DNA from: Escherichia coli | GTDB taxonomy: Bacteria > Pseudomonadota > Gammaproteobacteria > Enterobacterales > Enterobacteriaceae | NCBI RefSeq assembly: GCF_017348835.2 | Contig: NZ_CP071375.1 | Strand: one strand, 5' to 3' | Length of the DNA: 64,000 nucleotides | Shown: one piece after another, positions 1 through 2,897 of the stretch | Position numbering within the stretch: the stretch's first letter is position 1 | Layout of the letters: every line of letters begins with the position of its first letter | Program-made: the position numbers

Positions 1-2897
1 TACGACTGATATCTGCCCGCACCCAACACTCAAACAGGGCAATTAAAAATTTCCCCCACAGCTCTGCTGTCACCGAAGCGGCCGTCAGATCGCCCAGTTC
101 ATCAAATTCAAGATGGGGAATGAGCTGTACGGAGCGGATGCCCCGTTGTTTGAAATTGTGATAAAAATCGGCAGGTTGCAAAGCATCCTTATACTCTACA
201 ACCAGTTTATGCCTGTCCTCTTCAGCATCAATGACCTGACTTCCTGTCATGCGACTCTCTCAATAAATACGATAAGTTGATGTATATGCGTTACAGCAAA
301 CAGTATTGCGAGAGATAACACCGCGAGGGAGATCAAAAATTTGTCACGGACTACGTGAAATTGGGAAAAATCGCTATTCGTGACATCCATTAAATTGCGA
401 TTACGGGTGTAGTGCCAGAGGATCAGCGCCACGATGGCGAGGATGCCAGTCGAAATCCAGAATAACATGCCCGCCTGGTGCCAGTTGTGTTTGATAGCCA
501 ACGCCATCAACGCGCCGTAGCCCAGCATGGTACGAAACCACGCCAGTGATGTGCGCTCCGGCTGCAGTCCTGGGTCGGCAATGCGTCTGGCTTTGAGGCT
601 ATCCGGCATACAACACCAGTCCCATAACGATCACCGCCACGATCATCAATATTAAGCTGATGATTAATAAGCTGTTGGTGTAGGGCAGGTCCTCTTTCAG
701 ACGCATCGCTTTTTCATTGCGTAACCAGCGCAGGTAGCCATACATCGCTAACCCGCCGGAAAACAGACACAACAACAACGCCAGCAGTTCACGAATGACA
801 GGCGTGGCGAAATCTGGCGCAAGTTGATCAAGCCCAACCCCCGCCGCCAGAAATCCTAGTGCGGTACGGATCCACGCCAGAAAAGTACGCTCATTAGCCA
901 GCGAGAAGCGGTAATCGGGCGCTTCTCCAAGGCGGGAAATTTTCATTGTTGCTCCTTTGCAATTTCACTAACGCTCTACCTTTAGCAGTTTTTTTTAAGA
1001 ATTTCGTCCGCCCGTTTCCTGATATGCTTTTGCCATCCGCTACAAGGAGGTCAGATGGGTATCATAGCGCAAATTGACATCCTCCACGCCCTGAAGGACG
1101 TGGATCCCTGCTACGTTCAGGCTGTCGCCTGAATCATTTCGGTGGGTTCCTGCTTCAACGGGCGGCCTGACTGCACCATCCCTCCACAGGCAAGAACGGC
1201 GTGCCCCGCCGCTAAAATGTTACGAGCGCCGTTTACATCGGCGTTCGCTGTATATCCACATACCTGGCATCTGAATTTACTTTGTGACAGGCGATTTTCT
1301 TTCGCTGTATGACCACAGCACGCGCAACGCTGGCTTGTGTACGCTGGCGGAACAGCAAGCACCTGACCGCCACGCCAGAGCTGCTTGTACGCAAGCTGGC
1401 GGCGCATTTCATACCAGCCCTGATCCAGTATCGAACGGTTTAAACCTGATTTTGCCCGGACATTGCGCCCCGGCTGGCTGACCGTACCCGCTGCTGACTT
1501 TGACATGTTGCTGACCTTCAAATCCTCAATGACTATCATTGCGTGGTTTTTGCTGACGGTCGTTGTGACTTTGTGAAGGTAGTCCCTGCGGATATTTGCG
1601 GTACAGGAATGCAGTCGCTGTATTTTGCGTTTCTGCTTCTGCCAGTTATTGCTGAATTTGACCTTGCGGCTTAACTGTCGCTGAAGTCTCGCCAGCTTCT
1701 TCTGGTTTTTCTGAAAACTGTTTACAGGCTCAAAGACTGTGCCATCTGACAGCGTGGCGAGTTTAGCCACGCCAGCATCCAGCCCGACCATTGATGCTGA
1801 AGGGTGAACCGGAGTTGATACTTCACTTTCTGTCTGAATACTGATGTACCACTTACCGCAGGACTGGCTGACAGTGACATTTTTCACAACTCCCGTGACC
1901 TGACGGCTGTTCCGGTAGCGCATCCAGCCCAGTTTCGGCAGAAAAATACGGCTGTTTTCCTGATCGAGCTTAACGCCCTGCGGGTAGCGGAATGCATCAT
2001 TCTGTCCCCGCTTTTTGAATCGGGGAAAAGCAGCCCGATTCTGGAAGAAGTTTTTGTAAGCCCGCTCAAGGTCTTTCAGTGACTGTTGCAATGGCTGTGA
2101 GGGCGAATCTTTAAGCCATTGCGTTTCAGTGGCGTTTTTCCACTCAACCAGCCAGGAAGCCATTTTCCCATAAGGGATGTATTTATTACCGGCCTCATGA
2201 TTCTCATTCTGAAGCGCCAGAGCACGATTGAAAACGAAACGACATGCGCCTGCGAAGCGCCTCATTTCACACTCCTGTTGATCACCTGGTCTTAACTGGA
2301 ATTTAAATGCCTGTAGTCGTTTCACAGGCCAAATGATACTTTGGTCTGTGAAAAAAGAAACCGATATCCGGCGTGGAAGGCATTGTGTTTTCCTGATGCA
2401 TGTTCACCTGGTCTTTGTCACCAAATACCGACGCCAGATTTTTGACCATGACGCGACAGAAAAACTACGCACTTACTTTTCAAATGTATGTGCTGATTTT
2501 GAAGCTGAACTGGTTGAAATGGATGGCGAACCAGATCACGTCCATTTGTTAATTAACTATCCTCCCAAACTGGCGATATCCAGTCTGGTAAACAGCCTCA
2601 AAGGCGTATCGGGTAGGTGACTGCGACGAGATCGACCAGATATTGCAGTCAGGTATTACTACAAAGGCGTTTTGTGGAGTCCTGGCTATTTTGCCAGTAG
2701 CTGCGGAGGTGCGCCAATATCCGTCATCCGCCAATACATTGAACAACAGCAAACACCTGGTCAGGTGGAAAACCGCGCCTTATATCCCCGCCCTGAAGGA
2801 CGGGGTTTTACGGCGCACCGGATAAATTTGGTTATGCGCCGTCAGCCGTGCTAAAGAATACGGACCAGCACCCAACGGATGCCAGTCCACACAATTA

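Follow-up and report, generated by a model that had tools for sequence, protein, structure and literature searches.

The window, i.e. the entire 64,000-nt stretch of Escherichia coli DNA that was analysed (contig NZ_CP071375.1), carries an insertion sequence (IS) between yidH and glvA. In K-12, yidH is followed by yidI, yidJ, yidK and yidL, and then by the glv genes. An earlier reading of the DNA without database searches (the sequence-only reading) had expected yidI–yidL at this position; the K-12 gene order agrees, and yidJKL are present in 5,133 of 5,426 complete E. coli genomes. According to the ORF list, Pfam and PGAP, the start codon of yidH (minus strand) lies at 946 and glvA ends at 2895. 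The interval between them (947–2894) measures 1,948 bp, of which 1,748 bp (1074–2821) are IS, in agreement with the earlier description of a ~1.9-kb interval that is almost all IS. The locus contains the following features:

599–946, minus strand: yidH (DUF202 membrane protein), intact, left neighbour (ORF list, Pfam PF02656, PGAP annotation of the identical genome PE164)
947–1054, plus strand: yidH–yidI intergenic region, kept intact, with the yidI ribosome-binding site AAGGAGG (1044–1050)
1055–1073, plus strand: 5' stub of yidI, consisting of the start codon, five codons and one base (MGIIAQ) (K-12 alignment and translation of K-12 yidI)
1055–1132, plus strand: 25-codon fusion ORF that starts in the yidI stub and continues into the right end of the IS (ORF list, K-12 comparison)
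1058–1250, minus strand: predicted TnpB guide RNA (omega RNA), approximate extent (sub-threshold Rfam matches, fold, published TnpB systems)
1074–2821, minus strand (IS top strand is the minus strand of the window): IS200/IS605-family element, IS609 type, 1,748 bp (aligned copies, empty sites)
1083–1104, minus strand: right-end subterminal hairpin of 9 predicted bp with a TTCA loop, at a distance of 9 nt from the IS terminus ...GGATGTCAA (DNA fold)
1117–2325, minus strand: tnpB (insQ-type RNA-guided endonuclease), 402 aa, intact (Pfam PF12323, PF01385 and PF07282, structure matches)
2333–2854, plus strand: tnpA (Y1/HUH transposase) pseudogene (Pfam PF01797, PGAP note 'internal stop')
2786–2805, minus strand: left-end subterminal hairpin CCCCGTCC TTCA GGGCGGGG, 16 nt inside the left-end tip (DNA fold)
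2822–2826, minus strand: target or transposon-adjacent motif TTTAT (plus strand ATAAA), abutting the left end (11-copy comparison, empty sites)
2822–2898, plus strand: 3' stub of yidL, comprising its final ~25 codons with the stop, in a 4-nt overlap with the glvA stop (alignment to yidL of K-12 and CUVET21-1780)
2895–4217, minus strand: glvA (6-phospho-alpha-glucosidase, 440 aa), intact, right neighbour (ORF list, Pfam, PGAP)

The element is a known mobile element of the IS200/IS605 family, of the IS609 type. We take the name IS609 to be that of the K-12 nomenclature; PGAP gives only the label 'InsQ/TnpB family'. Its right end (1074) and left end (2821) were fixed by aligning 8–12 copies, the first 8 of which came from different loci. 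These boundaries are confirmed by uninterrupted empty sites with one copy of the target motif, found for yajI (100% identity in 5,083 genomes), yfeD, ydcO, TetR and yeaQ. The IS in the window is 98.4% identical to the K-12-type insQ/ydcO copy (28 differences in 1,745 aligned positions). Both ends carry a subterminal hairpin with the same loop, and for both hairpins the minus strand gives the more stable fold (right end, −7.7 kcal/mol with a z-score of −3.0; left end, −11.6 kcal/mol, compared with −9.5 kcal/mol for the plus strand). The ends themselves, TTGACATCC.. and ..GCGCACCGG, form no mutual inverted repeat. Insertion took place 3' of NTTAT, without target-site duplication, in 11 of 11 copies, too few to derive a proper target logo. 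The exact left-end sequence was found at no more than three loci in 100,044 species genomes, which brought the target sample to these 11 copies. In the K-12 record, TTTAT is on the minus strand both at 3.85 Mb (the yid locus) and at 2.36 Mb (yfaV–yfaY, see below), and both loci presumably lie in the replichore that is read from oriC towards lower coordinates on the K-12 map. The top strand of the IS is part of the lagging-strand template at both loci, which is the published preference of IS200/IS605 elements.

In these respects the element resembles IS608 of Helicobacter pylori and ISDra2 of Deinococcus radiodurans, the well-studied model elements of the family. It shares with them a Y1 transposase together with TnpB, subterminal hairpins in place of inverted repeats, integration without duplication on the 3' side of a short motif at the left end, and a top strand on the lagging-strand template. 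Its target (TTTAT/NTTAT) differs from those of IS608 (TTAC) and ISDra2 (TTGAT), and its genes diverge, as in IS605, instead of being co-directional. The closest relative is the K-12 IS609 between ydcL and ydcO (tnpA pseudogene plus insQ/ydcM), which has the same ends, divergent tnpA and tnpB, ATAAA (TTTAT) at the left end and the same tnpA TGA. Yet, the K-12 copy is a simple insertion with an empty site in O157:H7 and other strains, whereas the copy in the window is joined to a deletion of 4,666 bp. Our literature search found no biochemistry of an IS609-type element; IS609 turned up there only in lists of resistomes and IS elements and, in one case, as a TnpB candidate that had been purified.

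The two genes of the element are in different states. TnpB matches PF12323, PF01385 and PF07282 (HTH, OrfB_IS605/RuvC and zinc-ribbon), all above the curated cut-offs, and aligns to the ISDra2 TnpB structures 8h1j/8exa with E = 4e-52. In the alignment to the top match, a designed RNA-guided nuclease (9yyg), the motifs GLDAG, IEDL, NADVN and CxxC are present. The gene is intact in 10 of the 11 copies, with a pN/pS of ~0.36. By contrast, tnpA is interrupted by an in-frame TGA (2618–2620) upstream of the catalytic Tyr region (..RQYIEQQ..), with PF01797 matches on either side (2333–2620, E = 8e-27; 2672–2854, E = 3e-6). Beyond this codon, the tnpA frame stays open up to the end of the IS and extends through the left end into the yidL stub. 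The stop position is polymorphic (TGA/TTA) among IS copies. Because of its premature stop in tnpA, the copy in the window cannot move itself.

On the yidI side, the region 947–1054, which presumably includes the yidI promoter, is 97–99% identical to its counterpart in 4,005 genomes, where it lies upstream of annotated yidI; the longer segment 947–1073 matches the yidH–yidI region in the same number of genomes (4,005/5,426). The sequence-only reading had pointed to a 25-codon ORF with a Shine-Dalgarno sequence AAGGAGG that runs into the end hairpin of the IS, and had suspected the 5' stub of a cut gene. All these elements are in place (1044–1050, 1055–1132 and 1083–1104), and the suspicion proved right. 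The AAGGAGG and the ATG at 1055 are the ribosome-binding site and start of yidI itself, and the first 19 nt are identical to the yidI start of O157:H7. While K-12 YidI begins with MGIIAQNK, the ORF begins with MGIIAQ/IDIL (slashes mark joints here and below), and its codons 7–25 derive from the right end of the IS, across the hairpin. The ORF has no match in Pfam; it is an accidental product and represents no gene family.

On the opposite side, the 77-nt stub of yidL begins with the TTTAT motif at 2822–2826, which is unduplicated yidL sequence (K-12 yidL reads ..TTTAAAC ATAAA TTTGG..). PGAP calls a C-terminal gene fragment of yidL at 2824–2898 in PE164, whose sequence is 100% identical. The flank 2806–2894 had been proposed for comparison with yidI–yidL; from 2822 onward it is indeed the 3' end of yidL, but 2806–2821 is still the left end of the IS.

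Compared to K-12, the locus thus lacks 4,666 bp: codons 7–149 of yidI, all of yidJ and yidK, and codons 1 to ~272 of yidL. These four uncharacterised genes encode a membrane protein, a sulfatase-like enzyme, a sodium/solute symporter and an AraC-type regulator. With stubs of 19 nt of yidI and 77 nt of yidL flanking the IS, the earlier suggestion of an insertion accompanied by a deletion is borne out. The IS junction occurs at the yid locus in 304 of the 5,426 complete E. coli genomes (5.6%), including strain HS, whereas 5,133 retain yidJ–yidK–yidL, and therefore the deletion is the derived rather than the common state. Strain MSB1_1D, which gave no left-junction match, has an ordinary yidI-type allele. 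A natural deletion of yidIJKL was not found in our literature search.

An alternative view is that yidH and glvA were adjacent ancestrally, that yidI–yidL were inserted in the K-12 lineage, and that the IS landed in the spacer. The locus is variable, with yidI naturally absent and yidJKL retained in ~26% of the genomes, and this variability is all that speaks for such a history. However, coding sequence borders the IS on both sides, 19 nt from yidI together with the yidI promoter region and 77 nt from yidL, yidJKL are present in 5,133 of 5,426 genomes, and no genome has yidH adjacent to glvA without the IS junctions. These findings refute this view, which we consider extremely improbable. The sequence-only reading had itself named natural yidH–glv adjacency in most lineages and an ORF without any match as grounds for giving up its interpretation; the IS junction is confined to the 304 genomes, and the ORF starts as yidI. 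Likewise, we found neither a mismatch of the stubs nor a common IS-free adjacency of yidH and glvA. With a probability of roughly 90%, an IS609-type element stands in place of 4,666 bp of ancestral sequence in the window, the ORF at 1055–1132 is the start of yidI fused to the right end, tnpA is stopped and tnpB is intact.

The structure of the junctions provides clues to the origin of the deletion. In intact sequence, both end points fall exactly at ATAAA (yidI, CAAA/ATAAA/ATC; yidL, AAAC/ATAAA/TTTGG), a motif with a frequency of 0.0023 per nt on that strand. The two flanks of the IS trace back to separate target sites that share one orientation. The same holds at yfaV–yfaY, where strain 17MR471 has a second, independent IS609-linked deletion of 2,348 bp, with the right-end point exactly at an ATAAA of K-12 yfaV. 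Moreover, the yid locus has two types of deletion. In 16 genomes (MB53, ws5-3 and 14 more) the junction between yidL and the left end is the same as in the window, but the right end is joined inside yidJ, and yidI is intact. Because these genomes share the yidL junction, the deletions appear nested and anchored on one insertion. The tip of the right end is intact both in the right end–yidI junction (~288 genomes) and in the right end–yidJ junction (16 genomes). The former ends at TTTAT in codons 7–8 of yidI and the latter at GTTAC. Far end points are thus exactly TTTAT in two of three cases (yidI and yfaV); in the third (GTTAC, yidJ), the last base deviates from TTAT, which all 11 natural insertions have in common.

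These patterns might be explained by a single insertion, after which the transposase joined the right end to a second target and thereby deleted the downstream DNA. We give this explanation about an even chance. The IS would have integrated once, as single-stranded DNA, 3' of TTTAT in yidL, on a strand that by map position is the lagging-strand template. DNA downstream of the right end would have been lost afterwards, in one or two steps. TnpA would cut exactly at the right-end tip (..GTCAA/), without pairing to the left-end cut, and the 3'-OH of the right end would be joined to DNA cut 3' of a further TTAT-like site on the same strand, releasing the intervening segment. This would be the chemistry of normal integration, here within one molecule. 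The expected outcome would be nested deletions anchored on the yidL junction, with ends at GTTAC in yidJ (16 genomes) or at TTTAT in yidI (~288 genomes). The lagging-strand orientation fits this explanation, and so do the left-end-proximal variants 1281T and 1299A (alignment A8 columns), which occur only at the yid locus and are common to both junction types. On the other hand, only the product of the deletion step has been observed and not the step itself, the end point in yidJ is GTTAC instead of TTAT, and spans of 2.3–4.7 kb exceed what is commonly assumed for single-stranded gaps at replication forks. Our literature search found no adjacent deletions made by TnpA or other IS605-family transposases.

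Deletions that are nested, with one IS end shared and a variable far end, are likewise known as intramolecular adjacent deletions of classical IS elements (IS1, IS10, IS903). Those elements use DDE transposases, double-stranded DNA and loose targets, whereas the explanation proposed here would involve a single-strand HUH transposase and far ends at the element's own 5-nt target.

IS-adjacent deletions are common in bacteria, and an illegitimate deletion beside an existing insertion and independent of the transposase, for instance by replication error or break repair that the IS hairpins provoked, might also have produced the locus; the distant TTTAT would then be coincidental. The GTTAC in yidJ, which is not a canonical target, would suit such an event. 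Yet, the right-end tip is kept to the base in three different joints with no use of microhomology, and two of the three far end points are exactly ATAAA, with a chance of ~0.002 each. This makes an illegitimate deletion improbable. A microhomology-mediated deletion was rejected, as no shared bases were consumed at the joints examined; in the MB53 joint (CCATTG/TTGAC), for instance, both copies of TTG are kept. We also rejected TnpB cleavage as the direct cause. When the site is occupied, it is the right end instead of TTTAT that stands in front of the guide target, and a break made by a nuclease would leave no precise joint between the IS tip and a second TTTAT.

A more serious competitor of the single-insertion explanation, although we regard it as rather unlikely, is recombination between copies. 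Separate IS609 insertions in the same orientation (at TTTAT in yidL, TTTAT in yidI and, for the rarer allele, GTTAC in yidJ) would have been followed by a RecA-dependent crossover between two direct copies that removed all DNA between them and left one hybrid copy. This predicts exactly the structure seen, with both flanks at target motifs. Furthermore, the IS alleles at the yid locus are visibly mosaics of variants from other loci and alleles, which implies that homologous recombination within the IS does occur at this locus and counts against the transposase explanation. The same is true of the right-end hairpin, which carries T24/A29 at the yidJ junction versus G24/T29 at the yidI junction, variants that match other IS copies (elsewhere, T24/A29 is seen in the copies at yfeD and yeaQ). 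Such a difference is in keeping with separate origins of the right-end segments, the outcome that recombination between distinct copies would have. IS variants were also used to distinguish single from multiple origins, but the alleles are too mosaic to decide.

However, recombination would require three insertions within 4.7 kb and two more within 2.3 kb at yfaV–yfaY, while only ~8 distinct IS609 loci occur in the species sample. It does not predict that variation of the junction is restricted to the right-end side, and GTTAC would be unprecedented as an insertion target (0 of 11 copies). It also passes through alleles with one or two insertions. The predicted parental junctions are GCAAAGCCTTTAAAC/TTGACATCCTCC for an IS in yidL only and GGCGCACCGG/ATAAAATCAGTTCATTGG for an IS in yidI only. 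Searches with chimeric junctions (the left end of the IS joined to downstream yidI, upstream yidL joined to the right end of the IS, and the corresponding pair for yfaV/yfaY) found an IS confined to yidI, to yidL, to yfaV or to yfaY in 0 of 5,426 complete genomes each; none of the predicted intermediates with one or two insertions is among them, even though both deletion products persist. The absence of parental alleles from these 5,426 genomes supports the single-insertion explanation, but is no proof that such alleles never existed.

The intact tnpB offers a possible reason for this absence. The predicted omega RNA would take its scaffold from the 3' end of tnpB and the right end of the IS, and the predicted 16-nt guide (1073–1058) is TTTGCGCTATGATACC, i.e. 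yidI and flanking sequence. The region has an RNA fold z-score of −2.9. On its strand, Rfam gave sub-threshold matches to HgcC (24 bits, threshold 50) and sot0042 (19 bits, threshold 88); a scan of 800–3100 yielded sub-threshold matches only (HgcC, sot0042 and RAGATH-18), from which no guide RNA family can be assigned. The intact yidI of O157:H7 contains a perfect TTTAT motif followed by at least 20 matching nt. The predicted TnpB target in intact yidI is TTTAT+TTTGCGCTATGATACCCATC, and its counterpart with the GTTAC motif is GTTAC+CAATGGAGCCTGCG.

In ISGst2 of Geobacillus stearothermophilus, TTTAT is recognised by both TnpA and TnpB, and in the published model TnpB with its guide RNA cuts the joint of motif and right flank (Meers et al., bioRxiv 10.1101/2023.03.14.532601). 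ISGst2 is a different element in a different organism, but the 5-nt motif is the same, and by analogy cutting of this type would apply to intact yidI. The 'empty site' of TnpB would differ, however: in ISGst2 it is the product of simple excision, whereas in our case it would be the undeleted ancestral allele. After the deletion, the guide would come from the start of yidI, and intact yidI has TTTAT next to exactly that sequence. Since the predicted guide matches intact yidI, an active TnpB would cut undeleted alleles and favour the deletion allele.

As such, the feature is routine. The deletion allele is an ordinary strain polymorphism, by which a known IS has removed yidI–yidL from ~5% of sequenced E. 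coli; HS, a commensal strain used as a reference, is among them. The allele can serve as a lineage marker, and it accounts for the stray ORF and the gene fragments in pipeline annotations of the locus. The mechanistic lead is modest, and consists of three joints with a base-perfect right-end tip, two of which end exactly at TTTAT, and of nesting on one junction at the yid locus. The combined idea, that an IS200/IS605 transposase makes adjacent deletions and that the re-aimed TnpB guide then converts or eliminates undeleted chromosomes, is tentative and in our view rather doubtful. If true, the re-aimed TnpB would explain both the absent intermediates and the finding that the TTTAT-ended allele is 18 times commoner than the GTTAC-ended one. 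Should the transposase indeed produce deletions of this kind, elements with TnpB would remodel the DNA beside them and afterwards protect the resulting allele by means of a re-aimed guide. This would be relevant to the persistence of these very abundant elements once their transposase is lost.

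In the window, one IS609-type element of the IS200/IS605 family, with both tips precise, replaces 4,666 bp of the K-12 sequence, namely yidI from codon 7, yidJ, yidK and most of yidL. This confirms the sequence-only observation of an IS where yidI-yidL are expected, and supports its suggestion that a deletion accompanied the insertion; stubs of yidI and yidL flank the IS.

Features at the left of the window
247-609, minus strand: yidG
599-946, minus strand: yidH
interval between yidH and glvA: 1.95 kb
1117-2325, minus strand: tnpB, 402-aa ORF with three TnpB domains
2333-2620 and 2672-2854, plus strand: Y1 transposase (tnpA) halves in one frame, split by an in-frame TGA (2618-2620)
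2895-4217, minus strand: glvA, 6-phospho-alpha-glucosidase, intact (440 aa)
right of glvA, within the first 6 kb: a glvBC-type PTS gene, then yidP

Over window 600-3200, E. coli PE164 (NZ_CP114128.1) is 100% identical; PGAP annotation of the stretch between its yidH and glvA lists InsQ/TnpB as intact, tnpA as a pseudogene ('internal stop') and a C-terminal fragment of 75 nt as part of a 'hypothetical protein'. In window 2895-6094, glvA (440 aa) and the PTS gene beyond it are both intact, the IIB gene being 1,617 nt by PGAP; their K-12 counterparts (L003 11866-14126) are annotated as frameshifted or with an internal stop.

The IS boundaries were set by aligning the window copy with seven copies at other chromosomal sites. 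At TTGACATCC (window 1074) the eight sequences abruptly become similar, and they stay so as far as ..GCGCACCGG (window 2821), after which six copies continue with ATAAA and the other two with ATAAG. For the yajI copy, a synthetic 'empty site' was composed of the left flank, a single ATAAA and the right flank; it was matched at full length in 5,083 genomes, the top matches listed being 100% identical, and the same test also found uninterrupted empty sites for the yfeD, ydcO, TetR and yeaQ copies. Copy alignment and empty-site matches together give the element a length of 1,748 bp and show that it enters 3' of TTTAT, read on the window minus strand (its top strand), without duplicating the target. 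Three more copies from other genera have the targets TTTAT, TTTAT and GTTAT, which makes TTAT invariant in 11 of 11 copies. Similar hairpins occur at both IS ends and fold better on the minus strand. The IS shares 98.4% identity with the K-12-type copy adjoining ydcO, which K-12 nomenclature calls IS609.

Of the 11 copies examined, 10 keep tnpB intact (pN/pS about 0.36). The TnpB of the window copy matches ISDra2 TnpB structures (E = 4e-52) with RuvC and zinc-finger motifs retained. Disabling tnpA mutations vary by allele: a TGA in the window and HS, a 1-bp deletion plus TAA in ATCC 43886, Res13 and MB53. At the stop site (window 2618-2620), TGA is also found in ws5-3 and the yfaV, yedK, ydcO and yfeD copies; ATCC 43886, Res13, MB53 and the yajI, TetR and yeaQ copies have TTA (Leu) there. 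Within the IS the tnpA frame lacks a stop of its own and reads through the left end (window 2821-2854) into any flank; PGAP therefore labels every copy 'missing C-terminus'.

Window 947-1073 corresponds to the yidH-yidI spacer plus the first bases of yidI, and 4,005 of 5,426 complete genomes have a match to it. The K-12 gene starts ATGGGTATCATAGCTCAAA/ATAAA/ATC (product MGIIAQNK..), and the window reads ATGGGTATCATAGCGCAAA. Because this runs straight into the IS right end, the 25-codon ORF at 1055-1132 is yidI codons 1-6, with yidI's own AAGGAGG, followed by 19 IS codons, a junction accident and no gene. This agrees with the earlier suggestion of a 5' stub. On the other side of the IS, which extends to 2821, window 2822-2898 equals the final 77 nt of the yidL gene of K-12 and of CUVET21-1780. 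At this break K-12 yidL reads ..GCCTTTAAAC/ATAAA/TTTGGTTATGCG...

A query with just the two IS junctions matched 304 genomes, every one on the chromosome and the commensal reference strain HS among them, versus 5,133 genomes with the yidJ-yidK-yidL segment. The allele with IS and deletion is therefore derived and in the minority; the refuting scenario of the earlier reading, natural adjacency of yidH and glv in most lineages, fails. About 1,420 of the 5,426 genomes have yidJKL but neither the yidH-yidI spacer nor yidI, for example CUVET21-1780, so yidI is a presence/absence polymorphism in its own right, independent of the IS. The yidH-yidJ gap in CUVET21-1780 (L002 3736-3830) is 59 bp.

In intact sequence, the left break falls just before an ATAAA in yidI and the right break just before an ATAAA in yidL, both on one strand, which has 11 ATAAA motifs over the 4.9-kb region (0.0023 per nt). 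A second IS609-linked deletion was met by chance in 17MR471 (L005, NZ_CP051158.1), where a 5'-truncated yfaV adjoins the IS on one side and the yfaY end on the other, and 2,348 bp of K-12 (L014 12520-14867) are missing: the yfaV 5' end, rhmD and yfaX. K-12 yfaV at the right-end break reads ..GCGCCAAC/ATAAA/CGG..; on the yfaY left-end side, K-12 has ATAAG and 17MR471 ATAAA. Two exact coincidences, about 0.002 each, argue for a choice of the far end points by the transposase target rule. Illegitimate deletion independent of the transposase would leave the intact tip and two exact TTTAT end points unexplained, and is improbable.

We favour a deletion made by the transposase, with a probability of about 0.5. 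After integration at the yidL TTTAT, TnpA would cut the right-end tip as usual, the right-end 3'-OH would then be joined to DNA cleaved 3' of another downstream TTAT-like site on the same strand, and the segment between would be released. The chemistry would be two cleavages and two joinings, as in normal integration in this family. Such a process predicts nested, target-ended deletions on the right-end side, with one insertion per locus enough. Literature searches found no published precedent.

Deletions at this locus are nested on the left-end junction. A sister allele in 16 genomes (MB53, ws5-3, N3 and others) has the same left-end/yidL junction, intact yidI and a 159-nt yidJ 3' remnant; its right-end tip is intact and adjoins ..GCTCCATTG in yidJ (L015 1632-1835; L016), followed in K-12 by GTAAC (GTTAC on the IS strand). 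This non-canonical site and the 2.3-4.7 kb single-strand span count against transposase action. In the sister-allele right-end hairpin, T24 and A29 weaken the stem; both changes also occur in the yfeD and yeaQ copies.

The main rival, RecA-dependent crossing-over between separately inserted direct IS copies, would give an identical product. Every IS allele at this locus is mosaic, and right-end hairpin variants are linked to junction type, as this rival would have it. In the alignment of 12 copies (A8), ws5-3 matches ATCC 43886 at columns 89-403 and HS at columns 1141-1666; same-locus copies differ by ~2%, as do copies at different loci. Mosaicism and such divergence even at one locus indicate frequent recombination or gene conversion within IS609. 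Crossing-over would need five insertions, all within two short regions, and every parental allele would have to have been lost. No INTERMEDIATES, with the IS in yidI, yidL, yfaV or yfaY alone, was found by four queries (0 of 5,426 genomes each). We consider crossing-over possible but less probable. Columns 1281T and 1299A of A8, found at this locus only, are common to HS, ATCC 43886, MB53 and ws5-3, which points to a single original insertion at yidL; the window copy lacks both and looks partly converted by other IS copies.

A further decayed allele in 1332KP (L017 3525-4887, NZ_CM173849.1) has the yidI/right-end junction and tnpB. Its annotated tnpB CDS, longer by 111 nt, abuts the PTS IIB gene stop, so the tnpA 3' part, left end, yidL stub and whole glvA (about 1.78 kb) appear to have been lost. 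Six matches (H150-H155), mostly on 60-64 kb plasmids, have IS609 left and right ends just 200-735 bp apart and may be miniature, internally deleted derivatives, some beside a hok toxin or addiction-module gene.

By analogy with elements already studied, the predicted TnpB guide RNA would cover the 3' end of tnpB and the right end and extend into the flank. Window 1061-1244 (minus strand) gave weak, sub-threshold Rfam matches to TnpB-linked RNAs, archaeal HgcC and the haloarchaeal sense-overlapping transcript sot0042, which appear to be TnpB-element guide RNAs filed under older names; the fold z-score on the guide-RNA strand is -2.9. The guide would be TTTGCGCTATGATACC..., and intact yidI of O157:H7 has TTTAT followed by exactly TTTGCGCTATGATACC; K-12 has one mismatch. 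If this TnpB is active, undeleted alleles would be cut in cells that carry the deletion allele, which may partly account for the missing intermediates.

What the locus shows is a known IS in a known kind of event, already in public genomes and partly annotated there. For IS200/IS605 biology, the rule for the end points and the nested allele offer a modest, testable lead.
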